Assembly (NCBI GenBank): GCA_043228905.1
Contig: JBHGNT010000020.1
Span: 11,036,001 to 11,100,000, forward strand
Direction of reading: 5' to 3'
Length of the DNA stretch: 64,000 bases
DNA from: Azolla caroliniana
Lineage: Eukaryota > Plantae > Polypodiophyta
How positions within the stretch are numbered: position 1 is the first letter of the stretch; every line of letters begins with the position of its first letter. Below the pieces are notes generated by a model, which saw nothing but the letters and a program-made list of their open reading frames with translations, was not told the DNA's origin and made no database searches. Below, piece by piece: positions 5,659 to 64,000 of this stretch. A program made the translations under genes and the position numbers.

Positions 5659-5708
<50 letters not shown>

Positions 5709-5866
5709 GTCAACCCACACAGGCATCTTCGACAACAAGAACGACCCGATTGTAAACCTAAACAACAATCGATTCCTTACAAGCACAAGTCACCTGATCC
5801 ATCCTCCTTGGTCAAAGACCCCGGTGGTCTTGTTCGACTGATCCGCAAGCGCGGATTTCTGCGACA
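3650..5866 (+). repeat. Diverged ~0.9-kb direct duplication (about 3650-4520 and 4925-5866) flanking a LINE ORF1 fragment
   Basis: Collinear blocks: gtgaaaat(t/c)gcgtggaacgag (3651, 4925), catggtcatcatgca, ggaagggaaaggaaatcaag, gaacgatcctt..gatcctccatcaccacttgc, gcgcggatt..cgcgacaa. Confidence 0.85.
4520..4891 (+). pseudogene. Non-LTR retrotransposon ORF1 fragment (RRM/CTD type)
   Basis: RSKNIVFCGIKEE...AHRVGK...RPSVC...LNGTQCFVSEDCTISQQNARR matches the NI..GI.E / HR.G / RP / L.GT..F.SED.T pattern of LINE ORF1p. Confidence 0.7.
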
Positions 5867-5868
5867 AT

Positions 5869-6660
5869 GTGACCTATGAGACTAACCCACGCCTTTTACG
5901 ACTATGCTTTTGGAATTGCAATGGATACCCATGGAATGCGGGATTTGGCATAAAGGAGTTCACTGATGATTTGGATATCACACTTCTTGTTGAAACATGG
6001 GAGCATGATACTCAAAGGATTCAACGTTTAGGAAACTATAATGTACACTCTTTGATATGGAAGAAAAATCCAAGGTAAAGAAGAGGACAAGGAGGGGTGG
6101 CATGTTTCATTAAGAAGGAAATAGAGAAATATGTGTCAATCATAAATGCTACATATGGCTCAAAATAGAAACACCTAATGATTTGCCCACTTTTCTAGTT
6201 GGATGTTACAATCCTCATCAAAATTCTAACTTTTATCCTTGTTTGGATAAAGATCAACCTTTTGCTAATCTAGAAGATGATATTGCTTATTTCAAATCCA
6301 AAGGGGACGTTATTGTCTTTGGTGACATGAATGCTTGTACAAGAAGTTTCCAACTTGATTCACAAGAATCTTTCATGCCACATATCTCAAGGATGCAAGA
6401 GGATATGCAAATGTATAACCGCTCTTCTAGTGATGAAAAAGATCCTAACCAATTTGAGAAGTTACTCCTACAAATGTGCAATAGTACCGGATTGCTTATT
6501 GCAAATGGTATTTCCTTATGGCCCAACACTAATGGTTTTACATGTAGAAAACACAACGGAAATAGTGTGATTGATTATGTGCTACTTTCCGAAGTTATTT
6601 TCGATTGTATACATAAAATCTCACTTGGTGAATGGACACCATAATCTGATCATATTCTGT
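5869..6660 (+). pseudogene. LINE apurinic/apyrimidinic endonuclease domain (ORF2 N-terminus), disrupted
   Basis: CFWNCNG, LVETW, GGVA, VFGDMNA, FTC..NGNSVIDY and SDH motifs; stop and frameshift near 6078-6180. Confidence 0.88.
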
Positions 6661-31900: not shown

Positions 31901-33956
31901 TTTAGTTCCGGCGTCTTCGGCACGGTAAATTCGAGCCAGATTCCCTTCGAGCGATAGTACTCCTCGAACTGCCTCCAATATTCACCTCCGTTATCTGCTC
32001 GAACCGCCTTCAGCTTCCGGCCGGTTTCTCTTTCCACTCTCGCGTGGAGCTCTTTGAAGACGGATAACACCTGATCCTTCGTCTTCAATGGTGTGGCCCA
32101 CAGCTTCCGGCTGTGGTCATCTATGAACGTCACGAAGTACTGCGATCCAGCATGTGACTTCGTGTCCACTTGACATACATCAGTATGCACCAACTCCAGT
32201 GGTGCATTACGTCTCATCGGTAGCCTCGATCGGAAGGAGGTCCGGTTTTGTTTACCGGCCAGACAGTCAGTGCACTTCTCCAAGTGCACGTTCTTCACTG
32301 GAATGAGGTTGTCGTCTACAAGCCTCTTCATCCCCTTCTTGCTCATGTGACACAACCTCTTGTGCCATAGCTCACTGGCAGTGTCGGATGCCACATTCAC
32401 TTCCTCCGGACATAACCGGGCATTCATCAGGTACAATGTGTTTACCTTCTAGGCCCGAGCCACAATCAGGCTCCCTTTGCTGAACTTCATAACACCGTTC
32501 CGGATGCTACATGTGTAGCCTTCATCATCTAGCCGACCGACTGATATTAGGTTCAGACGAACCTCCGGAATGTGTCGGACATCCTTCAGCAACAGCTTGC
32601 ATCCGGTTGGTGTTGTCAACCACACGTCTCCTATGCCAACAATTCGGCATGTACCTTCATTCCCCATCCAGACACAACCGTGATCACCGGCTGAGTAGGA
32701 TGAGAAGCATTTCCAGTCCGGGGTAAGGTGGAATGACGCTCCGGAGTCGACCACCCAGGTCATCTCGTCGCCGGCAAGGTTTAGCTCACTCTCCTCGGTG
32801 ATGAGCATCAACTCTTCTTCACTTGCCGCGATTGTCGTCGTTCCCTTTCAGTCCGGCCCCCTCCGGTCTTTACCGTTCCGGTCCAGTGTCCGCTTTAAAT
32901 CGGTACCGTCAGTTTCCTTGTCTTTTCGGAAATGCCGACAGTTCTTCTGGAAGTGTCCCAGCTTGCTGCAATAGAAGCAAGTAGGCCTCCCCCTTGACTT
33001 TGACCGTGTCCCCGACTTTTCCCGGTTCTAGGGACTACGGTTCCTTTGTCTTCCACGTTCCGATTCAGTAAGGAGCGCTTTGGAGTCGGAGCTCGTATCC
33101 TTATCTTTCCGATGTGCCTCCTCATCTAGCAAGCTCGACTTCACTCTTGCTAGGGATAACCGTTTCCCTTCCGGCCCGGCGTTGCCCAAAGTGACAACCA
33201 ACGTCTCCCAGCTATCCGGGAGGGAACCAAGCAGGAGTAGCGCTAGTACCTCATCGGCGAGAGGTACTTCCAATGATGTTGCCTAGTGTATCAGCCCCTA
33301 GAAGGCATTTATGTGCTCCGGCATGCTGGAGCCATCTTGGTACCGGAGTCTTACTAGCTTTCGGAATACCGAAACCTGGTTAACAACATTTTTGTTCTGA
33401 AACATAATGCCGATCTTCTCCCAGAGCTCATGAGTCTTGCTCTCTTCATTGAAGTTGTTGTAAAGGCTCATGTCGATGAAGCACCATATGTACGCCGTTG
33501 TCTTCATGTGCATCACCTCCCATATCGCGGCGTCGATTTTGTCCGGTCTCTTGTCCCCGAACTGAACCGACAACCAAAGATCTTTAACCACGAGCATGTC
33601 CCTCATCTTCGACTTCCACACGAAATAGTTGGAGCCTGTGAGCTTGAACATGCCTCCCAACGATTCGTCCATTTTCTGTGTCGTTTTGCTCTGATACCAC
33701 TTGACAGGAACTACGCGCTCCCGATGAACAACGCTCGGCCATAACCAAGCTTAGAATCAAACATAGAAAGATGGGAATGAATGCATGACACAAAGGAGAG
33801 AAGAGTACACCCTGAGAGGGAAAAAACCACGGGAGTCCACAGACTCCAAACTATCACTATATCACAATGATTACAACAGTGAGCTCACGGAGGCAACGAC
33901 CTCGTGCTCACGATCTTCGTCACAGGTGGTGGTGACAACAGAGGCAATGACCTCTT

Positions 33957-33990
<34 letters not shown>

Positions 33991-34377
33991 CACTGTTGCG
34001 CTCTAATCTTGCTCCAACAAGAATGACAACTACATTCACTAAGTTTGCCCTAAGTCATATTTATACTAAAATGAATTTTCGGCTATTTACAAATATAGCC
34101 CCGATGGACTTTTAGAAACATATTTACGAGTATGTCCCTTCATCCGGTGAGCACTCCTCACCGGGCCCGCATCATCCGGCGCTTGCCGGGTACTCATCAT
34201 CCGGTTCTTACCGGGTCTTCCGTTGCCGGGTACTTCACATCCGGTTCTCACCGGGTCTTCACCATCTGACGCTTGCCGGGTACTCATCATCTGGTTCTCA
34301 CTAGGTCTTCCGTTGCCGAGTACTCCTCATCCGGTTCTCACCACGTCATCCCATCCGGAGGGACCTGTTTCCTAACA
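28987..34377 (-). mobile_element. Complete but mutated Tnt1/Tork-like copia D, GATTT TSD, nested in the integrase of C
   Basis: LTRs 33702-34377 and 28987-29617; PBS 33688-33699; PPT 29618-29630; GATTT at 28982-28986 and 34378-34382. gag-pol broken by several stops. C's ...VAERK|NRHIL is split at the insertion. Confidence 0.96.
34140..34345. repeat. ~40-bp tandem repeats in the U3 of the copia D LTR (also 29430-29590)
   Basis: gccgggtactcatcatccggttctcaccgggtcttccgtt variants; the 5' LTR has one more unit than the 3' LTR. Confidence 0.85.
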
Positions 34378-44726: not shown

Positions 44727-47700
44727 TGTTGGGATTTCGGTCCCTTTCGGATGGGATGGTCGGATATCGGAGATGAATGCCGACAAGCCCGGTATCGGTT
44801 TCGGCACCGGATGACGAAGACCCCGGTTTCGGTACTGGATGACGAATGTACCCGGAGAGCGATCCGGATGCAGGGACATATCCGTGAACATGTTCGCTAT
44901 GGGCCCCTGTGGCTACAGTTGTAAATAGCCCAAAGTCATATAAGTATAAATATGACTTAGGGCAAACAGTTTTACTGTTGCTTCTCATTTTTCTGTTTTT
45001 CCACTCAAGAGGAGTGAAGTGTAAGCAGCCGTGAGAGAGAGAGAGAGAGAGATAGAGCGCGAGAGAGGAAGAGGTAGACGCCTCTGTGTATTTCCGCCGC
45101 CTGTGGCGAGGACAGCGAGCTCAAGGTCGTCGCCTTGCAGCTCGCCATTGTATACTTCTCTGTATAGTGTTGGTTTGGAGTCTCGTACTCCCGTGGTTTT
45201 TCCCGTCTAGGGTTTTCCACGTTAATCCCTGTGTACTCGCGTTTTGTTTCTCTTTGTGGTTCCTATTTTCTGCTCCATCGATTCGCGCTTACTCGGTTGT
45301 GGCCGAGTGGTGAAGGTGATTAGAAGGGCCTATTCCTTTCAAACTGGTATCAGAGCGACTGTTGCAGAAAATGGAAGGCGGCGGCAGCGGGCAGCCGGGG
45401 ATGATGGTGCTGAACGCACAGAATTACGCCGACTGGAAGATCAAGATGGAGGATCTTCTGATTGTTCGGGACCTGTACGAACCGATTGACAGGTCGGAAA
45501 TACCGAAGGGGGTACTTGAGTCGGAGTGGAAGCTCCTGAACCGGAAAGCCGTAGCGACGATCCGACAATATGTCGATGTAAGCGTCCTACAACATGTGGC
45601 GAACGACACCAACGCATACGAGATGTGGAAGAAGCTGTCGGGCCTCTACGAGAGGAAGAATGCGTTGAACCGGACCTCCCTGATGAGGAAGATTGTGAAT
45701 CTCAAGTACCGGGACGGCGAGAGTATGGTGGAACACGTAAGCACGTTCATGGGATTCGTGAACCAGCTTGCGGCGATCAAGTTCCCGTTGGAGGATGCAA
45801 TGCAAGCCATCATCCTGATGTGTACATTGCCGGACAGCTGGGAGAACTTGGTGGTGACTCTCAGCACCTCCTGCACGGAAGACAACTTGTCCTTACAAAC
45901 GGTAAAGACGAGTATTTTGAACGAAGAAGCGCGTCGGAGAGATAAAGAACCGGCCTCCGACTCGAAGGCGCTGCTTACCAAATCGGATAGGGGAAGACAA
46001 TGGAACCGGAGTCCGCAAAGACGGGAGAAGTCGGGGACCCGGTCGCAGTCAAGAGGAAGGCCCACATGCTTCCACTGTGGGAAGCCGGGGCACTTCCGAA
46101 AGAACTGTCGGCATTACCGAAAAGACAACGGAGCCGACGACACCGATTCGAAGAAGTCACCGGAGAGAAACAGTGCATACCGGGGAGCCACGGACCGGAG
46201 AGGTTCGGATCGGCGAGGGCAGGACCGGAAAGGAACAACGGCACTCGCGGCAAGTGAGGAAGAAATCATGCTCATCACCGAAGAAGGTGAACTAAACGTT
46301 GCCGGCGATGAGACGACCTGGGTGGTCGATTCCGGAGCGTCGTTCCACTTGACCCCGGAAAGAAGATACTTCTCATCCTACACAGCCGGTGAGCATGGCT
46401 GTGTTCGGATGGGGAATGAAGGTACGTGCCGGATTCCCGGCATAGGAGACGTGTGGTTGACAACCCCGACCGGTTGCAAAATGCTGCTGAAGGATGTCCG
46501 ACACGTTCCGGAGGTTCGATTGAACCTGATTTCGGCCGGGAGGCTAGACGATGAAGGCTACACAGGTAGCATCCGGAACGGCGTAATGAAGTTCAGCAAG
46601 GGGAGCCTGATAGTGGCTCGGGCCCGGAAAGACAACACCCTGTACCTGATGAATGCCCGGTTATGTCCGGAAGAGCTGAATGTGGCAGCCGACACTGCCG
46701 GTGAGCTGTGGCACAAGAGACTGTGCCACATGAGTGAGAAGGGGATGAAGAGGCTTGCAGAAGACAACCTTATTCCAGTGAAGCATGTGCACCTGGAGAA
46801 GTGCACCGACTGCCTGGCCGGTAAGCAAAACCGGACCTCCTTCCACTCAAGGCCACCGACGAGACGTAGCGCACCATTGGAGTTGGTGCACACTGATGTG
46901 TGTCAGGTAGAAACGAAGTCACATGGCGGAGCCCAGTACTTCGTAACATTCATTGATGATCACAGCCGGAAGCTGTGGACGGCACCGTTGAAGACAAAGG
47001 ACCAAGTATTGTCCGTCTTCAAAGAACTCCACGCGAGAGTGGAAAGAGAATCCGGCAAGAAGCTGAAAGCAATACGAGCGGATAACGGAGGGGAATACCG
47101 GGGGCAGTTCCAGGAGTACTGTCGCTCGAAGAGAATCCGACTCGAGTTTAATGTGCCGAAGACGCCGGAACTGAACGGGCTGGCCGAGAGGATGAACCGG
47201 ACCATAATGGAGAGGGTCCGGAGTATGCTGGCACATGCGAAATTACCCAAGGGGTTCTGGGCTGAGGCAATGTCGACGGCGACATACGTGATAAACAGAT
47301 CACCCTCAGTACCTTTGGACGGAGACACGCCGCAGAAAGTGTGGACCGGTAGGGAAGTATCCTACCGGCATCTGAAGGTGTTCGGGTGTCTCGCATACGT
47401 GCATGTGGCAAAGGACCGGAGAGGAAAGCTAGATCCGAAGACCCGGCCATGCATATTCCTCGGTTACGGCGACGACGAGTTCGGCTACCGAGTATGGGAC
47501 CCGGTCGACAAGAAGATATTCAGGAGTCGAGATATCGTCTTTATGGAGGACAAGACACTCGCCGACTGGGAGTCGGAGAAGAAGATGAAGAGCTCCAAGT
47601 CGACCGGTGAGGATCAACTCTACGAGGAGCAGTCCCGACCGGCAAGGGACCGGTTAACACTCGAGGATCCGGCCGAAGACGGTGAAGAAACAGAACCGGC

Positions 47701-50074
47701 CGAAGAAGATGAAAATGATACCGGAACCGGCCCCGATCCCGAAATGGATTCGGATGAAGAAGAAGAATCGGAAGAACCGGTTACCGAAGCTCCCGAACGG
47801 AGATATCCTCTAAGAGAGAGAAGGCCCCCCCGGAGATTTCCGGAACCAGAGCACGTGCTGCTAACCGACGAGGGGGAGCCGGAGAGCTTTGAAGAAGCAA
47901 AGCATGACACCCAGAGCCGCAGGTGGTTGAGTGCCATGCAGGACGAGATGGATTCCCTGCATGAGAACCACACATATGAACTTGTGGAGTTGCCGAAAGG
48001 AAAGCGGGCACTTCGAAACAAGTGGGTGTTCAAGCTGAAACCGGGAGATGCCGGAAACCCCCCGAGATACAAAGCCAGGATCGTGGTGAAGGGGTTTCAG
48101 CAGAAGAAGGGCGTCGACTTCGACGAGATATTTGCCCCGGTAGTGAAGATGACCTCTATCCGGACGGTGCTGAGCATAGCGGCAAGCATGGACCTCGAGG
48201 TAGAACAGATGGACGTGAAGACGGCATTCCTTCACGGTGACCTCGATGAAGAGATCTACATGCAGCAACCGGAAGGATTCGAGAAGAAAGGGAAGGAGCA
48301 CCTGGTATGCCGGTTGAAGAAGAGCCTTTACGGACTGAAGCAGCCTCCCCGGCAATGGTACCGGAAGTTCGACTCCTTCATGACCGACGAAGGGTACCTC
48401 AAAACGCAGTCCGACCACTGCGTGTTTGTGAAGAAGTTCGAAGGAGGAGACTCTCTAATACTCCTCCTGTACGTGGACGACATGCTGATCGTCGGACGGG
48501 ACCAGGTCAAGATACGGATGCTGAAGAAGGCTCTTCACTGAACCTTCTCAATGAAGGACCTGGGTCCGGCGAGGCAAATACTAGGGATGCACATCATCCG
48601 GGACCGGAAGAAGAAGCAGTTGTGGCTGTCACAGGAGAAGTACGTGACGAAGGTGCTTCACCGGTTCAACATGTCGGAAGCAAGAACGGTCGGATCGACC
48701 CTCCCGACAAACTGCAAGCTGTCCAGCAAGCAAAGTCCCAAGACAAAGGCTGAAAAGGAGGATATGATGAAAGTGCCGTATGCCTCAGCCGTCGGGAGCT
48801 TGATGTACGCCATGGTGTGTACGAGACCGGACATAGGATATGCAGTCGGAGTGGTGAGCCGGTACATGAGCAATCCCGGCAAAGAGCATTGGAACGCGGC
48901 CAAGTGGATACTCCGATACCTGAAGGGCACAACAAATGTGTGCCTCCGATTCGGCTCCGGAAAGCCCGAACTCGACGGTTTCACCGATTCGGATATGTCG
49001 GCTGATGTAGATACCAGCCGGTCCACATCAGGGTATGTGATGACGTATGCAGGGGGAGCTGTTTCATGGCAGTCGAGGCTGCAGAAGACGGTTGCGCTGT
49101 CAACCACGGAGGCGGAGTACATGGCGGCTGTTGAAGCCGGCAAGGAAATAATATGGATGAAGGACTTCATTAGAGAGCTCGGTATCCGGCAGGAGGAGTA
49201 CCGACTCTACTGCGACAGTCAGAGTGCAATCCACCTTGCAAAGAACGCGGCCTATCACTCCCGGACGAAGCACATCCAGCGAAGATATCACTGGATCCGG
49301 GAAAGGATAGAAGACAAGGAGTTCGTGCTAACGAAGATCCACACGGACGAGAACGGGTCGGATATGCTGACCAAGGTGCTCACACCCGACAAGCTAGAAG
49401 CATGCCGGAAGAGGATCGGATTGGAGAGACATCCCATGCCGAAGTGAAGGGGGAGTTTGTTGGGATTTCGGTCCCTTTCGGATGGGATGGTCGGATATCG
49501 GAGATGAATGCCGACAAGCCCGGTATCGGTTTCGGCACCGGATGACGAAGACCCCGGTTTCGGTACTGGATGACGAATGTACCCGGAGAGCGATCCGGAT
49601 GCAGGGACATATCCGTGAACATGTTCGCTATGGGCCCCTGTGGCTACAGTTGTAAATAGCCCAAAGTCATATAAGTATAAATATGACTTAGGGCAAACAG
49701 TTTTACTGTTGCTTCTCATTTTTCTGTTTTTCCACTCAAGAGGAGTGAAGTGTAAGCAGCCGTGAGAGAGAGAGAGAGAGAGAGATAGAGCGCGAGAGAG
49801 GAAGAGGTAGACGCCTCTGTGTATTTCCGCCGCCTGTGGCGAGGACAGCGAGCTCAAGGTCGTCGCCTTGCAGCTCGCCATTGTATACTTCTCTGTATAG
49901 TGTTGGTTTGGAGTCTCGTACTCCCGTGGTTTTTCCCGTCTAGGGTTTTCCACGTTAATCCCTGTGTACTCGCGTTTCGTTTCTCTTTGTGGTTCCTATT
50001 TTCTGCTCCATCGATTCGCGCTTACTCGGTTGTGGCCGAGTGGTGAAGGTGATTAGAAGGGCCTATTCCTTTCA
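44727..50074 (+). mobile_element. Very young complete Tnt1/Tork-like copia E, CTCCG TSD
   Basis: LTRs 44727-45341 and 49458-50074 differ only by one GA unit and one T/C that I could see. PBS 45345-45356; PPT gaagggggag before 49458; CTCCG at 44722-44726 and 50075-50079. Confidence 0.98.
45371..49447 (+). pseudogene. copia E gag-pol with a single in-frame TGA at 48539-48541
   Basis: CFHCGKPGHFRKNC, WVVDSGAS, integrase, YVDDM and RNase H; ORFs 45362..48541 and 48551..49447 are in frame. Confidence 0.95.
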
Positions 50075-51580
50075 CTCCGTGAATGTCCGACCGGGGTGGG
50101 TGACGACCCGTGTGTGGAGGGGGAAAAGGTCGGGTGGCGGGGGGGGTGTGTGAAAGGGGTTGTCACCGAACATGGGGTGTCTGTGGTCGGGGACGTGGTG
50201 TTCGCTGAGGTGTTCGTAGGAGGGCACAAGCACGAGCCTCATCGAATTTCATGAGTTGATACTCGCGAGAGACGTCGAGGTATAGGGCTAACTCTAGTAT
50301 GTCGTCACCCTCGAGGTCGGTGGGCCAATTGAATGCGGCGTATTCGATGTTGAATATGTTAGCACGAACCCCGACATCCCAGGCGGTTTGCCAAGCGCGT
50401 ATAAGCCAGAGGAGCCCGAACGGGGGTACGAAGGTCGTAGTGTTCTCCAACAGGGGTGCGGGTGAGGGTGTCGGCGATGTAGTGTAAGCGCACTAGTGTT
50501 GCGAAGAGGTGGGCTAGCTGGTCTTTGGTGACTTGCATCGTGACATCAGAAGGGTAGGTGAAATAGATCAGGTCGGAGATGTCTAAGTCAGGGGTGAGGG
50601 CGGTGTGAAGGTAGGCCATACCTTTGATAAACAAAATAGGGAGATGTTGGGGCAAGAGGTCGTCGACTGGGGGAGAAGGTTCTTCGGTGTCTTCCTAGTA
50701 CAACATGAAGAGGGCGAGGGCATGGTTGTCTTCAGGGAGTACTCAGATGAAGGTCTGCCGGTCTGGGGGTGTGGCGTCGTCAAAGAATATGCGACACGTG
50801 GCGGCCAATGACTGAAGGACGCATGTTGTCGTAGTGTATTTCGCACACTACGTGAAAATTGCATTTTTGTCCCTCCAGATGGAACCGGCAAGGAGGAACT
50901 GGTGAGAACCGGATGAAGGATGGAACTGGTAAGGAGACCCGGTACGAACCGGCAAGACCCGAATAAAGAAGGCCGGTGAGAGTCTCTCAGCAGATGAAGA
51001 GACAAATTTGTAAATAGAAGAAAAGATTGTTACATGGGTCGAAGCACGCTACGGGGTACCAAAAAAGTACTGTTTTTGGCCACAAAAATTGTCAGTACTT
51101 TCAATACTGTTAGTACTGAATAATTCAGAAAAAAAATTAGAGAAAAAGAAAATCGATTTTGGAGAGTGGGGTGACTGTAGTACAAGTGTCATTAACTGTA
51201 GAAGGAGTGGGGGGAACACGTGAGGAGATGTTCTTCCATTTTGGGGGCTATTTTCCCCTCACGTCGATTTTGGCGCTTCCCCTCACGTCGTTTTGGCGAT
51301 TCCCCTCATACTGTTCTTCCTCTATCTCTCTGAGCTTTTCATCACAGACATCCATGTCACGTTTCTGATTTTCCTTCAATCTAAATCTCAGACATCCATG
51401 TCTGGTTGGAGAGTTTGAGTTGAGGATTTCTGATTTTTTTAGGGTTTCTGTTTTTGTTAGGTTTCGGTTGAGGTACAGAGACTGTTCTGAGGGTTTAGGT
51501 AGCAGCCAATAGTCACTTCTTTGACAACGACTTTCGTACTTCCACCGATTGCAGTTGATGTCGTGGTGATTTGGGGCTTT

Positions 51581-51776
51581 TTCCACCAAATCGAGGCGGC
51601 ATTGGAGGTTCCTTCCACCAAATCGAGGCGGCATATCCAACGCTCCCTCCACCATTGGAGGTTCCTTCCACCAAATCGAGGCTGCATATCCACGCTCCCT
51701 CCACCATTGGAGGTTCCTTCCACCAAATCGAGGCGGCATATCCAACGCTCCCTCCACCATTGGAGGTTCCTTCCAT
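51581..51776. repeat. ~52-bp tandem repeats containing the hairpin CCTCCA-CCAT-TGGAGG
   Basis: ttccaccaaatcgagg four times; ctccctccaccattggaggttccttcca three times. Confidence 0.9.
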
Positions 51777-52590
51777 CCTTTTTTTTATTTTCAGTACTAA
51801 AATGTTTCATTTCTTCATATTTCAGTACTAAATTTTTAGAATTGACATTTGCCATATTTGATATGTAATTCTAATGTTTGAAACAAAATATTTCTCACTT
51901 TGCAGGCCACATTTAAAAACATTTGATTGTGTTTTCTTGGTTGAGTCTATATATCCACGCTCCCTCCACCATTGGAGGTTCCTTCCATCCATTTTTTTCA
52001 TTTTCAGTACTAAAATGTTTCATTTCTTCATATTTCAGTACTAAATTTTTAGAATTGACATTTGCCATATTTGATATGTAATTCTAATGTTTGAAACAAA
52101 ATATTTCTCACTTTGCAGGCCACATTTAAAAACATTTGATTGTGTTTTCTTGGTTGAGTCTATATATCCACGCTCCCTCCACCATTGGAGGTTCCTTCCA
52201 TCCATTTTTTTCATTTTCAGTACTAAAATGTTTCATTTCTTCATATTTCAGTACTAAATTTTTAGAATTGACATTTGCCATATTTGATATGTAATTCTAA
52301 TGTTTGAAACAAAATATTTCTCACTTTGCAGGCCACATTTAAAAACATTTGATTGTGTTTTCTTGGTTGAGTCTATATATCCACGCTCCCTCCACCATTG
52401 GAGGTTCCTTCCATCCATTTTTTTCATTTTCAGTACTAAAATGTTTCATTTCTTCATATTTCAGTACTAAATTTTTAGAATTGACATTTGCCATATTTGA
52501 TATGTAATTCTAATGTTTGAAACAAAATATTTCTCACTTTGCAGGCCACATTTAAAAACATTTGATTGTGTTTTCTTGGTTGAGTCTATA
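51738..52590. repeat. Four near-identical 213-bp tandem repeats directly upstream of the transposase
   Basis: atatccacgctccctccaccattggagg at 51951, 52164 and 52377 (period 213); each unit has tcagtactaaa twice. Confidence 0.95.
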
Positions 52591-52646
52591 TAACATTAAC
52601 TACTTTCGCAAGACACTTAATTTTTGTGGATAAATCTAGTGACCGA

Positions 52647-55600
52647 ATGGGGGTTCCTAACGAGAGTGAGTTGTCAAGTAACTCATGCATATCTGAAAGG
52701 ACTAAGAGACGAGTGGTTCTTCACATAGTTCGTTATTTGGTAGAAATAACGAAGAGATTTAGTGAAGAGGATCGTAGGGATATTATTTGTAGAGTGTTAC
52801 ACCATCAAAGTTTGAATGAAGACATGGAGAGAATAAAATTTAGGGACCAATGTGTTTCAGAAGAGATTGTGGAGTCTATGAAGTCATCCCTAGACTTAGT
52901 GAAAGGTGTAGAGAGCTTAGACAAACTTGCTGCAAAGAGGGCAGCCCTACACATGGTTGTGAATGGTGTGAGAGAAAAAAAATATAGTGATACTAAAGTT
53001 GCCTTAGCCCTGGGTATTCAAAGAAGGAACTTGAGGAAACATCGCCGAAATATACACTCAAGCAAATTCAAGTGGCTGGGGTCGGGACGTAGACGACGAT
53101 GTGATGCCTTATCTCAAGAGATTATTGAGAAAGTGGATTCATTTTGGGCCCAAAATACGCGTGTCTCACCAAATAAGAAGGACGTGTGTAGACAACGAAT
53201 AAGTCAGGGTAAGTACCAGATTCACCCTAGACACTTCTTGGAGATGACAGAGGTATTCCATTTTTTTATATCAATTCACATTCCATAACTTTGTGTTTTG
53301 ACCAAGTGTATATTAATGTTTGCTATATATATTGGTTGATGTAGGCTGAATTGTACATGAACTTTAAAGACCAACATCCAAGCTTGACTGTCGGATTCCG
53401 CAAGTTCCAAGGTTTGAAACCATTTTATGTTAGAAAATTAAATGAGAGGAATACATGTTGTTGTGTGTACCATGTGAAGATGGACATGTTAAGGGTTTCT
53501 GTGAATGCAATGCGTACTGATTCTAAGGGTATACATGGGGAATTATGTGTCTGCACTTGTGAGATTTGTAGACCAAATGGGGAGGATAATAGGTGTAATG
53601 CACGAAACATGACTTATGCATCCGTTTCTGAGCTATGGAGGTCTTGTGTTTGTGAAAAAGAACCATCGTGTGAGTGGCATCGTCGGACATGTCTATTAAG
53701 AACATGTAAGGTTTGTCCGCTACCATTATTTTGTAGGCAGGAGCTTGATATGGGAAATAGTCATATCGTGAAATGGAAATATTTGGAGTATGTGACTGAA
53801 AATATTGGCAAGGGAGTTGTAACTAAGCGTATCAAGGAAGTATATAAGGAGACATGTGCTGCTACCCTTGTCTCAGAATTTAAGAAACAACTTGGGGAGT
53901 TTATTCCACATAACTTCCGGAGTTATTGGCAAAATTCACAGTTCAAGGAATGTATTAATAACTTACCAACGGGTGTCATTGTATCCGTTATTGATTTTGC
54001 AGAAAACTATACATTTAAAGTTCAAAATGAGGTTCAATCAATGCATTGGTACAATGATCAATGTACAATACTTGTACATATTTGCTATTGGAGGCAAGAC
54101 GGTGAGTTACATAAGAAATCAATATTTTACATTTCAGATGATAAAAAGCATGATACACTATTTGTTCAACATTGTTTTAAGCTTCACCATGCAGATTTAT
54201 TTTCTCTAGGGCTAACCTTTAACCGTCATTGGGTTTGGTCTGATGGTGCTGCCTCGCAGTTTAAGGCGGCACGATCGTTCTACTTTATCGCCAGGTAATT
54301 TTTAATCCGTATGTTTAATACTTATCATGCAATGTGTAAGGAAGTAAATCTTGTGTTAGTGGATGCATACTAATTATGTTTGTAACTATTAACAAACAGT
54401 ACTAGTCACATCGTAGCATACTAATTATGTTTCTAATTTTGTTTGTATTATGTTGTACTAAGTAACTTTTAATCCATGTGAAGTGTTCTCCATAGACACA
54501 TTGTACTATGTTGTGTGTTGGTTCTGTACTATGTTGTGTTTACAAAAGGATGTAAAGTACTCATCTTGTACTCATAGTATTGTCCGTCCTTAAGAGAATT
54601 GTACTAAGTATCGATTAATCCATGTGAAGGGTTCTCCATAGACACATTGTACTATGTTGTGTGTTGGTTTTGTATTATGTTGTGTTTACAAAAGGATGTA
54701 AAGTACTCATCTTGTACTTATAGTATTGTCCGTCCTTAAGAGAATTGTACTAATTATGTTTTAATCCATGTGAAGGGTTCTCCATATACACATTGTACTA
54801 TGTTGTGTGTTGGTTCTGTACTATGTTGTGTTTACAAAAGGATGTAAAGTACTCATCTTGTACTTATAGTATTGTCCGTCCTTAAGAGAATTGTACTAAT
54901 TATGTTTTAATCCATGTGAAGGGTTCTCCATAGACACATTGTACTATGTTGTGTTTACAAAAGGATGTAAAGTACTCATCTTGTACTTATAGTATTGTCC
55001 GTCCTTAAGAGAATTGTACTAATTATGTTTTAATCCATGTGAAGGGTTCTCCATAGACACATTGTACTATGTTGTGTGTTGGTTTTGTACTATGTTGTGT
55101 TTACAAAAGGATGTAAAGTACTCATCTTGTACTTATAGTATTGTCCGTCCTTAAGAGAATTGTACTAATTATGTTTTAATCCATGTGAAGGGTTCTCCAT
55201 AGACACATTGTACTATGTTGTGTGTTGGTTTTGTACTATGTTGTGTTTACAAAAGGATGTAAAGTACTCATCTTGTACTTATAGTATTGTCCGTCCTTAA
55301 GAGAATTGTACTAATTATGTTTTAATCCATGTGAAGGGTTCTCCATAGACACATTGTACTATGTTGTGTGTCCTATCTGTACTATGTTGTGTTTACAGGA
55401 GGATGTAAAGTACTCATCTTGTACTCATAGTATTGTCCGTCCTTAAGAGAATTGTACTAAGTATCGATTAATCCATGTGAAGGGTTCTCCATAGACACAT
55501 TGTACTATGTTGTGTGTTGGTTTTGTACTATGTTGTGTTTACAAAAGGATGTAAAGTACTCATCTTGTACTTATAGTATTGTCCGTCCTTAAGAGAATTG

Positions 55601-56698
55601 TACTAATTATGTTTTAATCCATGTGAAGGGTTCTCCATAGACACATTGTACTATGTTGTGTGTTGTATCTGTACTATGTTGTGTTTACAGGAGGATATAA
55701 AGTACTCATCTTGTACTCATAGTATTGTCCGTCCTTAAGAGAATTGTACTAAATCAGTATTTACTCATGTTGTACTCATAGTATTGTACTCATCTTGTAC
55801 TCACCAAAGCAGGTATTTCTCCTTATTCAATATTCGTATGCAATGGAATTACTTCGGGTCTGGACATGGAAAAGGAGAGCATGATGGCGCGGGGGCTGTG
55901 ATCAAACGTGCCCTTACAAGTGAGCAGTTGGATAATAATGGCGCTAAGTTACAAAATGCACATGATGTTGTGCAGTGGCTAACATGGAAGATGTCAAATG
56001 ATGGTAAGAACAGATTGTTTGTTGAAGTTCGCGCTGATGAGGTCGATAGAACTAAATCATATGGTTGTAAAACCGTGAAAGGGACACGCAGCACCCATTG
56101 TGTGTTAGGGTTTAGCCGCAAGGACACAACCCAATTGTTACTCCGTAGTTTATCATGCTTTTGTTCCATGTGTCTAGATGAAGCTTGGGATAAATGCATC
56201 AACCTATCAATCGTGGAGCCCTGGAAGCTGCAGAAGCTTGAGCCTGAACTACAAGATGATATTGAAGAGGATGTGCATTCAAACGATATTGTATACTACA
56301 ACCAAAATCAAGACTTGGCAGTTTTATTGGAAGTTGGAGATCATTTTGCAGTGCTCAAATATTCTCAGAATGAAGATTTAGAAGACTACTACATTGTGGT
56401 GTGCAAGCAAGGAAAGACATTATTGAAAGAAGTGGTGAGGGATGGTTGGGGCAACAATTTCAACGTTGGTGAGTCTGTCGTGTATGGAAACTATTATGCA
56501 AAGTTGCCGCAGTGCAAGAACACATATGCATTACTAAAAGAAGCACCCATCGCAATAATCTACGCTGATGCCATTCTTGCGATCAAATTCAATATGACTC
56601 AAGCAAAGCACAAGGTTAAGGGATACAACACTGTCTACAAGGTCCCCCAAGAGGTTCATGAGCACATATTAGGGGAGGTCTCTCTATTTAATGCTTGA
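52647..56698 (+). CDS. Intact 3-exon DDD transposase, Sola2-like, ~813 aa
   Basis: Exons 52647-53252, 53345-54294 and 55813-56698 (GT-AG, in frame). Motifs DFAENY, EVQSMHW, ISDDKKHD, WSDGAASQFK, GHGKGEHDGAGAVIKR; acidic triad spacing about 83 and 41 aa; Cys-rich clusters before and after the core. Confidence 0.85.
54471..55751. repeat. 146-bp tandem array (9 units, one shortened to 123 bp) filling transposase intron 2
   Basis: aatccatgtgaag at 54471, 54617, 54763, 54909, 55032, 55178, 55324, 55470, 55616. Confidence 0.95.
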
Positions 56699-56843
56699 AA
56701 GTCACCCTATCAATACATTGTACTAGAAAACTGAAAAACATCCACTTGGAGTTCACTATTAATTTTGATGATTGACAAATGAATTGATATATTTCGTCTT
56801 TCTTCCAAAGGGTTTATGCCTCTCAACCACTTGTACTTATCTT

Positions 56844-59800
56844 TCATAATATATTAGTTGTTATCAACAGGACTTGGATTTCTTCATTGCCGATATTGCT
56901 CATGTTTCCTGATGTTATTTGAGCATAGGAGTTTTGCAGAGTTGGTGTGTCCTCTGTTGGCACATAAATCTGCTCTTCTTTTGCTACCAAGAGAAGATTG
57001 TTAGTTGAATTCATTAAAGACTTTAATATTGTAAGATTTTCTACTGTAAGTTCATTTTTCAAAGGGGGCGATGAATTCTGTGAAGACAACAATGAAAATT
57101 ATTCTCTCAGAATCCTTTTTTGTTTCATGATATGTCCTGTGAAGCCATCTGAGTTTTTACTTCTTGTATATAAGTCCTGAATATCCAGGCTATGGATTTT
57201 AAAGTACAAACCTTCCTTTCCTTAACAAAATAATCCAACTTCTGAAACAATAATTTGTGATAGCTCAAAGTGTTTCCTTACTACTGTTAGTGGATGATTC
57301 ATCCTTTGGGATGATATCATCAAAATATGGCCCACATTGCTTCAACAATTTGCACACATTCTGGTTACCGTCCAAATGGGATTGATGAAACAGTCTATAC
57401 TTCAGGATATCTTCAATAACACCCGATACCCGATATTTTCTGTTTCTCATCATCAACACCTAAAAACCTAAATTTTCCTAGCAAGCTAAGAAGACTTTCA
57501 AGCATTTTATCTACAATAGACTGAAAGACTTTGCGAGGATTAGGAGATGATCTCAAAAAAGAAACAAAACGTTGTAAAATAAGAATACTTAGATCAAAAA
57601 GTATATTCCCATTGTTTTTGATATATGTTGATGAGCAAAATATAGAAGCAATCCTTAAACATGAACTTGATTTCACACTGGTATAACTATTTCAGATTCA
57701 TGAACTGGATTTTTTACATTGGCAATTGAAACAGTATTTTGGTATCCAAATAGTTCAATTTCAGACATCACTAACAACTAAAGTTCAAGTACAATCGAAA
57801 GACAATCAGGCACTAGAGGGTAACTTGGCCGATCTTGTAATGCGCTTGTTGTTGGTGCCAGATTTTTCTGATTTTACATTCTTCTTTATCTTAAAGCCTT
57901 TAGGTATGAGCTGACTAAGTGGCACTTCATCATCAGAGGCATCAGAGACAGGCGTGGATGCGCGGGCACCTTGTACTGGTGGCAAGCTTGAGAGAGCAAC
58001 TATGTTTTCTGCAACTGCAATGCTTGTACACAAATCCACAAAGGTGCTGTCGATAGACAAATTATCACTCATCTCCTGAATGCTTGTACTCCTAGCGATC
58101 TTTATTGCCCTATCATCATCACCGATGCCTATACACTCGTTCTTATTAGACTCCTGTATGTGGACCGTGGCAGTAGTCATGGTCAACTCCTCTTGTACGA
58201 TGGATGTCACCTCATTCTTAAGACAACGTTGTTCGCTCTGAGTACAATCAGGCCCACCTTCATTAGTAACGTTGTTCACTCTACACTCCTCATGGGATTC
58301 TGTACAATCAGGCTTATCTTCAGGGAAAGCGATGTTCTTTCCACGATCCTCATGGGCTTCACAAGACACTACTAGCACATTCTCAGTACAATCAAGCTCC
58401 TCTTCATTACTAGCAATGTTCTTTCCATGATCCTCATGGGAATCTTTAGATAGTACTAGCACATTATCAGTACAATCAGTCTTCTCTTCAGCACTTGCCA
58501 CATTATCAGTACAATCAGTCTTCTCTTCAGTACTTGCCATATTCTTTCCACACTCTTCATGGGCTTCAATCTTCTCTTCAGTACTTGCCATATTCTTTCC
58601 ACACTCATAGGCTTCTTTAGACATAGTGTTGTTTGTACATGCCAGCTGCTCTTCACATATGAATGCTTCGTTTTTCTCACAATCCTCATGTGTGGAAGAT
58701 GAGCTTCTAGAGTCTGCCTCCTTGCAAAGGTTAATTTGATTCTGACTCTGATGGGAATCTGATTCTGCACTTGTGCTCCATGAAGTTCCCGATTCATTTG
58801 ATTGCAGTTGGGAATCAGACTGCTCTTGTAAACCTAATTAATGGGATTCCAAAGAATATTGGTATGAACTCACATACTCAAAAGTTTGCAAACAATGAAC
58901 ATAGGGTTTAGGGCCACATTTTTACCTAATGTTACATCGTCATACTGTACAGCCGTAGATACCCCATTGCAAGTGGTGGGCTCGGTCATCTTCTCCACAA
59001 CATCTAGGTGCTCAACAGTGTTGTTATGATCTATAATAACAACAAGAATAGGGTTGTTATGAGCTAAATCATTGTTTTCAAAGTCTGGCTTTTGACGTGT
59101 ACCTGGGAGTGTGATAAATTCGTCTTCATGATCAGGTTTTGGACTCGTATCTCCGTCACCAAATATCATTTCATCATCAGCTAGTAACACAAGTACATGG
59201 TATTAGACAATGGATTAGGTTGACAATGCTCCAGACAGGTGAGAACTTATATGACTCACCATTGCATTCAACTTTGCCTTTCTTGCCGTTTCCATACAAC
59301 ATTCTTGCAGCATTTCTCTTCTTACTGGGCTCTATTTGTAAAGAAACTGCATTTCTCTTCTTAGTGGGCTCTATTTCTTGATGTTGACCGGAGCTTGGGG
59401 AATTTGTTTGTAGAAGCATATGTTCCACTGCTCCAATGGCCCTTCTCATACATTCATCCTCATCATAAAAATCATAGGTTATTGGTAATGATGGTCCCTG
59501 AACCTTGGAATGTGCAGCAGATATTGAGGGTTTAGGCACAGGGGCTGGTTGTTCCATTACCTTCCCTGGCGTGGAGTTGCTTGACACTACAACATTCATT
59601 GCAACAAACAAAAAAACCTTGAATGTTAGTACCATCATCTAAAATATATAATGTAGGTCACAAGAGCTGCTTCCCATTTTACACAATGTACCAGTCATGA
59701 ACAATGTACTACTCACATAGTTCCTAAATTATTGAACTAGTACTAATAAGGAACACTGTACTGCTCACTTAGTTCCCAATTTACACGATTAGTACTAATC

Positions 59801-62672
59801 ATGCACAACATACACAAGTAGTACTAATCATGCACAATATACTACTCACTTAGTTACCAAATTACACAAGTACTAATCCCGAAAAATGTACCACTGACTA
59901 AGCCAAATTAATAAGTAGTACTAATCTTGAACAATGTACTACTCACTTATTTCCTAAATCACTGAACTAGTACTAATCCCGAACAACGTAATGCTCACTT
60001 AGTTCCCAATTTACACAAGTAGTACTAATCATGCACAATATACTACTCACTTAGTTAGCAAATTACACAAGGAGTACTAATGCCGAACAACGTAATGCTC
60101 ACTTAGTTCCCAATTTACACAAGTAGTACTAATCATGCACAATATACTACTCACTTAGTTAGCAAATTACACAAGGAGTACTAATGCCGAACAACGTAAT
60201 GCTCACTTAGTTCCCAATTTACACAAGTAGTACTAATCATGCACAATATACTACTCACTTAGTTAGCAAATTACACAAGGAGTACTAATCCCGAACAATG
60301 TACTGCTCACTTAGTTCCCAATTTACACAAGTAGTACTAATCATGCACAATATACTACTCACTTAGTTACCTAATTACACAAGGAGTACTAATCCCGAAC
60401 AATGTACTGCTCACTTAGTTCCCAATTTACACAAGTAGTACTAATCATGCACAATATACTACTCACTTAGTTAGCAAATTACACAAGGAGTACTAATCCC
60501 GAACAATGTACCACTGACTTAGTCAAATTACACAATTAGTACTAATCCTGAACAATGTACTACTCAACAATGTACCACTGACTTAGTCAAATTACACAAT
60601 TAGTACTAATCCTACAAAATGTACTACTCACTTATTTTCTAGATTACTGATCTAGTACTAATAAGGTACAAAACTAGTACTAATAAGGAACAAAGTACTA
60701 CTCAGTTCCCAAATTACAAAACTAGTATTAATCATGAGCAATGTACTAGTAACTTAGTTCACAAAGTACAGAACTAGTACTAATCATGAACCATGTAGTA
60801 CTTACTAAGTACTAATCCAACAAATGTAGATTGGTATTTTGCACACAAGTAATACTAAACATGATATGTCTTCTACACACCTAGTTACATAACTTGTACT
60901 AATTACACCAACAGTATTAATCTTGAACAGTATTAGTACTAAACGTGATATGTGTTTGACACACCTCATTTCCAAATTACAATAATTGTACTATTATTCA
61001 ACAATTTACTATACACCTTGTTCCCAAATTACATTACTAGTACTAATTCCCAAGTTACACAAACAATCTTAACAGTCAACAGTGTACTATAAGTATAGTG
61101 TTTACTAAACTAATACTAGGCAAGTTGCAATATAGATTGGACGATGTTGTACCTGGTTCCCTTTTAGTACTACTAATTGTGGAAAATATCCCTTCAACTA
61201 CACATACCAATTATATATTAAGAGTACTGCCAATACTAACCCACATAATTAGGGTTCCACATAATAGTTGTTAGAGATTACACTAAATTTGAAGTATGAA
61301 TTGTGGCATACACTAGTTCTAGTCCAAATGTTAATTGACATCATATAATACAAACAATAGAATAGTAGAGCCACATACCGTACGGGTGTACTTTTAAACC
61401 CCAAGCATAGTACCACTCAGCCGCAATTGTAGTTTTACAGTCCATACATGTATTCTCTTTCTCAAAATGATACTTAGCACATAGCACATGATATGTGTGC
61501 AAGCATGGTGTAATCACAACATCCATAGCCTCCAGCTTGAATCCGAGGCCACAAAATATACACCTGGAAGATTGCAAACACAAGTTATAATATATTAGTT
61601 GCTCACTTATTTATACCAAAGAAGTAGAAATAAATAACTTTTAAAGCCAATACCGTGATATAGCTATACTAATAATGGTACTTTCTATACCACTTGGGTG
61701 CTCAATTACAGATGGACACAAAGTATCAAAACCATTTTGTTTTAAATCCTGCATCAAGCATGCAAGGTTCTCAGAATGCAACTTTAAGGCTGACAACTTA
61801 TTATCTATTTCTTCATGTGCATTCCTGCAAGTATCAAGGTCTCTCATCTGTGAACCTAATTGAGTGCCCATATTGTTTAGCTCTTTCTTCAACTCCTCTT
61901 TCAAGACCTCACTTTCTGAATTTTGGATTGTCGATGCAATCCATTCATATGTAGTTTTTATTGAAGAAAATTTCTTTTCTGCCTGTATCTCAGCTGATTT
62001 AACTGCTTCCAAATCAGCAAGTAGTGTTTGTATTCTTGAGCTCATAGAAGCTATGCAACCGGCCATCATCTGTTCATGCTTTTCAGTCATTGTGGCCCGT
62101 ACCTTTGCCTCTAGAACTTGGTGGATAGGTGTTATAGCTAGAATATCCACATGAGAGGTTCCAGATGACTTCAAGCCAGTGTTGGTACTGGAGGACCCTT
62201 TGTAATGTTCTGACCGGTGCCGATTAAAATCTTCCCAATTTACGTCAATGCCACCTTGAACTTCACATGCAAAAGCACGTGCAAAAACAGTACCCACCTC
62301 ATTGTTAGTGATTTGATTTGTATCATAAACATGTTCGTATCTCGTCTTCAATAAATTCATGTATTCCCTCTTCAAACCACTTATGTGGAATCCTCGCCTT
62401 GTGTCGGGATGTGCTGACCCCCAGGTTTTTAACAACCACTCTCTCAGCTCTGGATACACGTCAGGTCGTGCTCGAAGGAAATAATTCCATCCAAGAGGTG
62501 TGTCTCGACTGATGGAGTGGTACATCTTCTTTCTCTGTGTTGATGAATTCATCACCCTTTCTCTTGTGGGTGTCTTCTTGCTTTCTTTCATGGGTGTCCT
62601 TCTTCCTTCCTTCACTGGTGTCTTCACTTTCTCTTTCATCAATGTCTTCTTTATGGGTGTCCTTCTCGTCAT
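56844..62672 (-). CDS. Convergent multi-exon accessory gene: basic TPxK/R repeats, coiled coil, RING-H2, acidic repeats; 3' exon structure uncertain
   Basis: Exon ~62672-61653 splices (..ISR) to ~61563-61379, giving CIFC..PCLHTYHVLC..CMDC. Further minus ORFs at 59638-59177, 59190-58870, 58624-57806 and 57676-56844. Confidence 0.6.
59700..60800. repeat. 104-bp higher-order repeat (two ~52-bp monomers) in an intron of the accessory gene
   Basis: agtactaatcatgcac at 60021, 60125, 60229, 60333 and 60437, alternating with agtactaat(c/g)ccgaac; degenerate flanks. Confidence 0.92.
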
Positions 62673-62749
62673 TGTCCTAGTCAACACAATTCTCAGGGAA
62701 TGAATATGCATGTACTAGAAGAAAACTCAAGCAATTACCATCAACACAT

Positions 62750-63150
62750 AGCAAATCATCTCATTGCATGTACAAACCATGTCAATCACACAATAACCCT
62801 AAATAGTCGGAAAAAAACTCCATTGTAAATCATCATAGCCAACTCCATCATTGTAAATCATTGTAAATCATCGCATCGCATGTACAAGCCAACTCCATCA
62901 CATCGTAAAACACACAAGCCAACTCCATCACAAGCCAACGAAAACATTGTAAATCATCATAGCCAACTCCATCACATCGCATGTACAAGCCATGTCAAAC
63001 ACACAAAAACCCAAAATAGTCGGAAAAACACTCATCCATGTCAAACTCACACAAAATAAAACAGATGGACAAGAAACAAGAACAAAACGAAAACATAGCA
63101 ACTCATCATAGCCAACTCCATTTACGTTGCATGTACAAACATGTCTAACA
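62750..63150. repeat. Degenerate repeats (atcatcatagccaactccat / gcatgtacaa)
   Basis: gccaactcca appears five times and catgtacaa four times. Confidence 0.75.
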
Positions 63151-63220
63151 CACAACCACCTCGATCAAAATATTTTCATACATTTTTAAAAGGAACACAG
63201 AGAAACACAGAGAAAACAAA

Positions 63221-63511
63221 AACACAGAGAATACCTGGAGGTTGTACAACTTGCAGAGGTACCAGACCGTGTTGATTTCGACAAACGAGGCTGCTGCAGA
63301 GGAGACAAACGAGCATAGACAGAGGAAACAAACGAGCATACAGACAGACAGGAAACATTCAGAAAAAGAAAACATTGAGTATTGGGCATGCAACACAGAG
63401 AATACCTGGAGGTTGTACAACTTGCAGAGGTACCAGACCGTGTTGATTTCGACAAACGAGGCTGCTGCAGAGGAGACAAACGAGCATAGACAGAGGAAAC
63501 AAACGAGCATA
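63221..63511 (-). repeat. Two 171-bp tandem copies containing a candidate micro-exon
   Basis: aacacagagaatacctggagg at 63221 and 63392; the minus strand reads ctgcag|cagcctc...acctccag|gtattc in each copy. Confidence 0.85.
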
Positions 63512-63803
63512 CACAAGGAAGGAAAATCAACAACACATACAACGAGCAGGGGAAACAAAAATCTCTGCGTTCAGAGATCGAACCTGGCACAGAGGGGAAC
63601 ACAAGAACAGCTACGCGGGGAAACAGAGCATCGAAGGTGGAGTGAGAGAGAGAAACAGAAAGAAAGAAAGAAACAGAGCTTTGAAAGAAAAAAACAGAAA
63701 GAATCGAAGGTGGAGTGAAAGAAAGAAATAGAGAGATAGACCTGTAATATATATGTCGTCTTTCTTTAACTTTCTGCCACTGTCTGTCTGACAACTTCGA
63801 GAC

Positions 63804-63837
<34 letters not shown>

Positions 63838-64000
63838 GTGAGTGAGAGAGAGAGACATACCAATTGACACGTTCGACTACCCATACCAGAGAGAGAGAGA
63901 GAGAGAGATACTGAGACTGACCAACTGTCACAATGGATACCTTCTCCAGGTGTGCTTTCGTACAACTCTACCTAGGAGACTGGGGCAACAATTAATGTAT

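Follow-up and report, generated by a model that had tools for sequence, protein, structure and literature searches.

A probable Sola2 transposon of Azolla caroliniana with a facing RING-H2 gene and an AGTACT palindrome kept across changing intronic satellites

A stretch of 64,000 nucleotides from the fern Azolla caroliniana (assembly GCA_043228905.1, contig JBHGNT010000020.1, positions 11,036,001 to 11,100,000; hereafter the window) contained a large DNA transposon that very probably belongs to Sola2. Its spliced transposase gene was faced by a multi-exon gene for a coiled-coil/RING-H2 protein, here called the partner gene, and the palindrome AGTACT is kept in the element while the surrounding satellite units are replaced. 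The element is read as an intact two-gene, cut-and-paste transposon of Sola2 type. Tentatively, its partner protein would bind AGTACT and ubiquitylate host silencing proteins, keeping the element expressed. Sola2 in plants, with a similar terminus and a 4-bp target site duplication (TSD), is already known, as is Sola2 with another second gene. The conserved RING-H2 partner and the retention of the AGTACT palindrome across unrelated satellite units appear to be undescribed.

The transposase gene occupied three exons of the forward strand at 52647..53252, 53345..54294 and 55813..56698. As an earlier note on this DNA had stated, they were joined in phase across GT-AG introns and encoded 813 amino acids without an internal stop. 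The intron position at exon 1 was common to the related loci L001-L006 and to more distant loci. Exon 2 was recognised by in-phase splicing and by its motifs, holding a Cys-rich region and the first two catalytic residues, D419 (DFAENY) and D502 (WSDGAASQFK). Exon 3, with D543 (HGKGEHDG) and the stop codon, was supported by L005 and L007, which showed 85% protein identity and the same splice site. The spacing of the DDD triad was 83 and 41 residues, as noted before. The N-terminal half of the protein was long, basic and Cys-rich. The PxKKDxV and F..L.P motifs of the N-terminus, the Cys-rich block and the three catalytic motifs matched the Sola2 alignment published in PMC3627910 by eye, in agreement with the Sola2-like assignment of the earlier note. 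The motif set of a Sola2 DDD transposase was also carried by an insect match, P0176. Pfam and PDB sequence searches returned nothing for the transposase, and the lack of a Pfam model for Sola is stated in PMC5751038 too.

A quick tree of 71 rows was calculated after duplicates and short matches had been dropped. The window fell into a strongly supported group of eight rows within a plant/algal set, which stood apart from P0175 and P0176 in this tree without named Sola1-3 references. The closest named transposase was that of Adiantum nelumboides, with 58% over 72% of exon 2, and Klebsormidium was more distant. Two of the matched proteins were likely annotation merges, P0174 of Klebsormidium combining a Sola2 transposase with leucine-rich repeats and P0176 of Eurosta including a V-ATPase subunit. 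Between exon 2 and three near copies, 11-16 of 316 codons differed, mostly synonymously. Towards the sister subfamily about 100 codons differed, about 60 of them synonymous and 36 not, and there were no stops. These differences are compatible with purifying selection, and recent spread of the element likewise fits them. In the near-identical copy L002, unrelated sequence at 1431-2671, probably another insertion, began 67 bases into transposase intron 2.

The partner gene was represented by a six-exon model on the reverse strand from 62672 to 57806, encoding 913 amino acids without a stop, which bore out the convergent coiled-coil/RING gene seen earlier. Exon 1 (61654..62672), based on the model and on AlphaFold, encoded a basic N-terminus (18 K/R among 50 residues), a helical domain that spans about 110 amino acids and belongs to no known family, and a long coiled coil with AlphaFold helices at residues 183-251 and 255-313. 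Exon 2 (61379..61563) encoded a C3H2C3 RING-H2 domain from residue 341, with the metal-ligand pattern C-x2-C-x15-C-x-H-x2-H-x2-C-x10-C-x2-C, and was supported by this pattern, Pfam and RNA reads. Splice models gave predicted exons 3 (59260..59586) and 4 (59103..59180); the 72-bp intron after exon 4 was in frame and may be retained. Predicted exon 5 (58926..59030) came from an in-phase GT-AG model. Predicted exon 6 (57806..58833), based on the model and its repeats, comprised the stop codon and an acidic tail rich in Ser/Thr, in which peptide repeats had units of 39 and 84 bp. Outside support was obtained for intron 1 only, where nine RNA reads of a related family exited at 61564 and continued into exon-1-like sequence. 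RNA reads of a related species covered the sense strand of the two genes sparsely, with 100 and 52 reads from about one eighth of each run. In the bin 56494-57435, around the transposase stop, RNA reads of a related species occurred at low depth in both orientations, and the 3' ends of the transcripts may overlap.

The N-terminal domain of the partner was predicted confidently (pTM 0.70). A fold search with it gave a best Z of 3.3 and no Foldseek match, a result that demonstrates no known fold and no novel one either. An Atlas search with this domain gave no match. Fold searches with exon 1 returned generic coiled coils only, and an Atlas search with P0150, a protein 25% identical to the partner and with the same domain order, returned generic RING clusters only. 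Among ten proteins checked, nine partner homologues and one transposase, five had species-named representatives, all of them Adiantum partner homologues. Searches for longer homologues passed over full-length protein lengths (957-2730 aa; 710-2025 aa, no match). The RING is somewhat more likely than not to be that of an active ligase.

There is a high likelihood that the partner gene is part of the element, as the earlier note had proposed, and not a host neighbour. Three lines of evidence point to this: continuity of depth, facing RING genes in distant relatives and a whole element with both genes. Similar high-depth contigs spanned the two genes and the intervening gap. Contig depth in run X5 was 3051 at 58003-58203 and 3304 at 62283-62538, and values of 396 and 402 were found in the gap in run X10, depths that are not convertible to copy number. 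Relatives were surveyed at 80 loci out of 434 related stretches, nine duplicates being dropped before RING genes were counted, and the RING profile was built solely from the window, P0142, P0150 and P0154. Twelve non-redundant loci extended for 8 kb or more beyond the transposase, and in eight of these the profile detected a downstream RING on the opposite strand. Upstream, none of the 14 loci with at least 8 kb had a match. Six of the eight facing matches scored 17.5-33 bits. Position and orientation of the partner were kept across transposases only 34-40% identical. This recurrence in distant relatives was regarded as the decisive evidence that the RING gene belongs to the element.

A further facing RING was present in the shorter locus L018. 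L070 was a whole element of 13,081 bp holding both genes between termini at 6919 and 19999, with both arms present, about 23 bp long and imperfect. In L033, the RING also lay between two termini, and the termini of distant relatives resembled those published for mosses. The facing gene of L021 comprised the N-terminal domain and the coiled coil, and no RING was detected in it. In L051, a locus of a deeper-branching clade, a coiled-coil and RING frame (3658-4917, forward strand) followed immediately after the transposase in the same orientation.

The left terminus of the element was located at 51036, where it starts with GGG and where contigs with unrelated flanks joined. Read contigs whose flanks differed (agreement 0.43 and 0.46) converged on this base, 14 in run X6 and nine in X12, and the first base of an X12 contig of depth 2178 was exactly 51036. 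Element-free contigs of the long terminal repeat (LTR) matched up to 51036 and then diverged (14 in X5, 10 in X6). Five assembled copies (L003, L004, L005, L024 and L007) began at the equivalent base next to unrelated, AT-rich flanks. The left end shared by read contigs and assembled copies identified the element as dispersed and multi-copy, which the earlier note had expected. Its GGG agrees with the 5'-GRG terminus that Bao et al. reportedly gave for Sola2 in 2009. The start had previously been put at 51053 with CTAC as the predicted TSD; contig junctions and the five copies moved it 17 bases further left. From the corrected terminus, the TSD to expect is ACAT at 51032..51035 (forward strand), the four bases preceding it, and a moss element whose terminus is similar has a published TSD of 4 bp. 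The GGGG taken as the start before fell within the terminus, and its third G (51055) was T in the five other copies. The predicted arm of the terminal inverted repeat (TIR) is about 23-26 bp long (51036..51061, forward strand), a length derived from relatives, namely L070 and the 26 bp of Ceratodon cluster_4006.

The abrupt start inside an LTR element held with the new terminus. The left flank at 50885-51016 resembled the Copia LTRs of the same window with 68-78% over 60-150 bp. Together with the element-free contigs, the similarity to the LTRs at 28986-29591 and 33701-34351 marked 50876..51035 (forward strand) as Copia-type LTR-like sequence that hosted the insertion. No inverted copy of the left terminus was found within the 64-kb window, and the element runs past 64000. 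Its length is at least 12,965 bp, DNA contigs covering all 30 bins to 64000. The region upstream of the partner gene (62673..64000), with a 135-bp duplication at 63221-63525, was under continuous DNA contig cover to the window end. A generic TIR search was rejected, as chance pairs swamped its output, and a terminal matrix specific to the family was used instead. It gave 28 matches versus two in shuffles, 11 of the 28 being its own seeds. A terminus-like word at 41673 was at chance level. Three matches of 19-20 bp to the terminus in prokaryote genomes were without other similarity to the element and were attributed to chance. Viral contigs yielded no match to the terminus or the transposase, and an Rfam search of 50000-64000 gave no match. 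We infer that the element may still be mobile at present.

The element was rich in AGTACT, as observed before, with 52 sites in 51053-64000 versus 22 in 1-51052. The whole window had 74 sites versus 12.3 +/- 3.1 expected. Three subterminal sites at 51066..51117 formed a cluster that was kept in sister subfamilies according to the left-end alignment (three in 215 bp versus 0.06 expected). Most sites lay 1-10 kb from the left end, within introns of both genes, and the 2442 bp of transposase exons contained none. The five tandem arrays described earlier (53, 213, 146, 52/104 and 64 bp) were present, with smaller ones besides. By repeat analysis, the 53-bp array covered 51600..51775 and was free of AGTACT. 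The 213-bp array at 51738..52592 comprised four copies with two AGTACT per unit, and one such unit occurred in L003. The 146-bp array in transposase intron 2 (54453..55752) had one AGTACT per unit. The 52/104-bp and 64-bp arrays at 59671..60802 were located in partner intron 2, which held 28 AGTACT in total.

Enrichment extended beyond single arrays. Non-tandem DNA contained four AGTACT in 568 bp versus 0.18 expected. In transposase intron 2 the word was enriched 21- to 54-fold across the window and L005-L007, and 46- to 54-fold in the sister subfamily L005-L007 by itself. Intron 2 of these three loci had no blastn match to that of the window and consisted of other repeat units (19, 41 and 73 bp). 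AGTACT was present in five of six units from unrelated arrays, and 13 of 2000 shuffles reached five for any hexamer. For partly related units the count was eight of nine, reached by 0 of 1000 shuffles. Tandem arrays with units of their own were found in 8 of 11 more distant long first introns, and other palindromes were enriched in distant introns, TAGCTA in L009 and TAATTA in L013. The first transposase intron, near codon 203, was conserved in position and carried a different satellite in each family, with units of 20 to 173 bp (L009, L011, L013, L016, L021, L027, L044 and L074). At 2680-2767 of the window, an 18/37-bp array just past a Copia reading frame was built on TAGCTA/TAATTA, words enriched in the intron satellite of L009; this may be chance.

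Cleavage by a DDD transposase takes place at both short TIRs, and the target is left with a duplication of 4 bp. In the proposed mechanism, the N-terminal helical domain of the partner would read the AGTACT palindrome and the coiled coil would give the dimer that a palindrome calls for. RING-H2 would recruit an E2 enzyme, and nearby host silencing proteins would be ubiquitylated. The element would thereby be kept expressed and shielded from host silencing, a VANC-like role exerted via ubiquitin. A role of the partner in anti-silencing or activation has not quite an even chance. That the partner, and not the transposase, reads AGTACT is a more doubtful step. It seems rather unlikely that Sola2 of ferns and other non-flowering plants would carry an old, lineage-wide anti-silencing module. 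In it, a ubiquitin ligase would recognise DNA sequence-specifically through a domain whose fold is undescribed, and would dock on intronic palindromes amplified separately by each family in its satellites.

The comparison with VANC is based on PMC5735166, in which VANC targets are reported from tandem repeats in introns, intergenic and terminal non-coding DNA, and VANC proteins carry peptide repeats in variable regions. The window element shares with VANDAL/VANC of Arabidopsis a short motif that tandem repeats have multiplied within introns and in non-coding DNA near the ends, repeat turnover between related copies and an accessory protein with peptide repeats. VANDAL elements belong to Mutator and not to Sola, and no RING is mentioned in the excerpt of that paper. 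Binding and demethylation by VANC were demonstrated there; for the partner protein they are predictions. In the manner of a VANC-type motif, AGTACT was amplified in non-coding tandem repeats that differed between relatives, with moderate statistics. Homology to VANC proteins was not found. Besides the RING frame, four partner frames scanned gave no Pfam family above cut-off, and the partner showed no Pfam similarity to VANC domains, a comparison made via Pfam and not with a VANC sequence directly.

Several observations weigh against the partner being a conserved, AGTACT-reading ligase of the element. Two of the eight facing RING matches were weak (9.7 and 11.2 bits), three of the other four loci were without a RING and the fourth had a weak match on the same strand, and most RING matches in relatives were decayed. 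In L016, a facing frame of a NIF-like phosphatase (5322-6104, reverse strand; PF03031, E 3.7e-6) took the place of the RING gene. The flanks of L070 (AATC/AATT) agreed in three of four TSD bases, and those of L033 (ATGT/CTTA) showed no TSD match. Both genes were never recovered together on a contig of the same family; the contigs of L005 and L007 broke off just past the transposase stop. Pfam zf-RING_2 matched the partner RING with E 4.5e-5 and 24.1 bits, under the curated cut-off of 27.3, and it was missing the Pro that normally precedes the final Cys pair of RINGs that bind E2. For the N-terminal domain, no Pfam, Atlas or fold match suggested DNA binding. AGTACT was chosen as test word after the data had been seen. 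Taken alone, the five units of the window carried it in four, a number that 309 of 1000 shuffles reached and that is not significant. No AGTACT occurred in the 1328 bp that precede the partner gene, and the three subterminal sites fell in the first 82 bp of the element, where transposases usually bind.

These conserved terminal sites point to the transposase itself as the protein that binds AGTACT, at the ends and, for pairing or self-activation, in the internal arrays. The partner would then be an element-borne ligase or scaffold that helps by other means without reading DNA, for example by targeting the transposase, cut repair or proteins of host defence. The long basic, Cys-rich N-terminal half of the transposase and the absence of a recognised DNA-binding fold in the partner are in line with this account. 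The AtMu1 transposase alone can activate its own copies (bioRxiv 10.64898/2026.08.24.746577). Because of the subterminal sites and the AtMu1 result, binding by the transposase is nearly as likely as binding by the partner. It is countered by the position of most sites far from the left end, in introns of both genes, and by the AtMu1 transposase peaks, which were located at TIRs in the same preprint. Relatives with another gene or without the RING gene, and the inflation of motif counts by tandem amplification, would also suit a captured passenger of little use, with satellites as slippage products that amplified a terminal word by chance. This is improbable given the same place and orientation across such divergent transposases, the stop-free model of 913 codons in six exons, and AGTACT in unrelated repeat units and in non-tandem DNA. 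The RING gene might instead belong to the host or to another element beside the Sola2 transposase; in favour of this, no same-family contig held both genes, and the right end of the element is beyond the window. Such a neighbour is highly improbable in view of the continuous high-depth cover across both genes and the gap, the AGTACT arrays shared on both sides, the whole relatives with both genes between termini, and the contrast between downstream and upstream RING counts.

The earlier note had taken Sola2 to be a single-gene group mainly of animals and protists. This view was too narrow, as plant Sola2 are reported in Ceratodon and Cupressus and dictyostelid Sola2 have Fanzor1 as a second gene. 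With the Sola2 group in PMC3627910, the window element shared the motifs DFAENY..Q.E.QS.HW, ISD..KHD, SDG.A.Q[YF]K and HGK..DG and the Cys-rich N-terminal region. AT-rich insertion sites were common to both, and the short TIRs of the group (PMC10741241) recur in relatives of the window element and are predicted for the element itself. The element was at least 13 kb long versus mostly 2-9 kb in Sola2 (PMC10741241), and differed further in its spliced transposase with intronic satellites and in its second, RING-bearing gene. Table S2 of PMC12973397 lists cluster_4006 of Ceratodon purpureus as recently active, with domain Sola2, a 26-bp TIR, a 4-bp TSD and about 10.9 kb. Three further Sola rows concern Ceratodon, Rhytidiadelphus and the fern Cibotium; in the last two, TIR and sequence cells look swapped. 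The terminus of cluster_4006, GGGTGAAAGCA.., resembled that of the window, GGGTCGAAGCA.., and the two elements were of similar size and from non-flowering plants. Compared by table listing, these rows give a Sola domain only, and that part of the paper mentions neither a partner gene nor arrays of a motif. A preprint on Cupressus gives Sola2 as its commonest DNA transposon, and Sola counts are published for Ceratopteris and Azolla.

Sola2-Fanzor1 of Dictyostelium and Polysphondylium (PMC3627910) shared the Sola2 transposase and the presence of another gene towards the 3' end, and their short TIRs and AT-rich 4-bp TSD correspond to those predicted for the window element. That additional gene encodes a TnpB-like nuclease in place of a coiled-coil/RING protein, and their termini are not GRG. 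Sola1-1_Ec32 of Ectocarpus (PMC12477816) is also a large Sola, and an accessory gene on its opposite strand has been proposed to target the element that carries it; it belongs to Sola1, and its accessory protein is ParB plus a DNA methyltransferase. The literature search found no RING partner or motif-bearing intronic satellites described in Sola elements, Repbase entries being outside that search.

Few plant transposon anti-silencing proteins have been tested so far (VANC, TnpA), none with a RING in the literature found. The intact gene pair, a six-base candidate site and sister families with other words make a direct test possible. The results also describe how a group of DNA transposons that abounds in ferns and conifers is built. 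Since the Sola2 group has no Pfam model, its partner genes probably pass for RING genes of the host in annotations. A ubiquitin anti-silencing module, if true, would have arisen convergently with VANC and would offer a programmable means of de-silencing chosen targets. If the partner proves a passenger, a useful family description of modest interest remains.

Two features adjoined the element on its left. A complete Copia element with LTRs of 99.5% identity and the 5-bp TSD CTCCG was situated at 44727-50074 within LINE-like sequence, its polyprotein interrupted by one in-frame stop near 48541. At 50825-50858, a 34-bp hairpin with a perfect 8-bp stem reached a summed DNA-contig depth of up to ~500,000. 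It was bordered by unlike flanks on both sides and had some RNA reads and no Rfam match, and it may be a motif shared by the ends of a highly abundant class of repeats.

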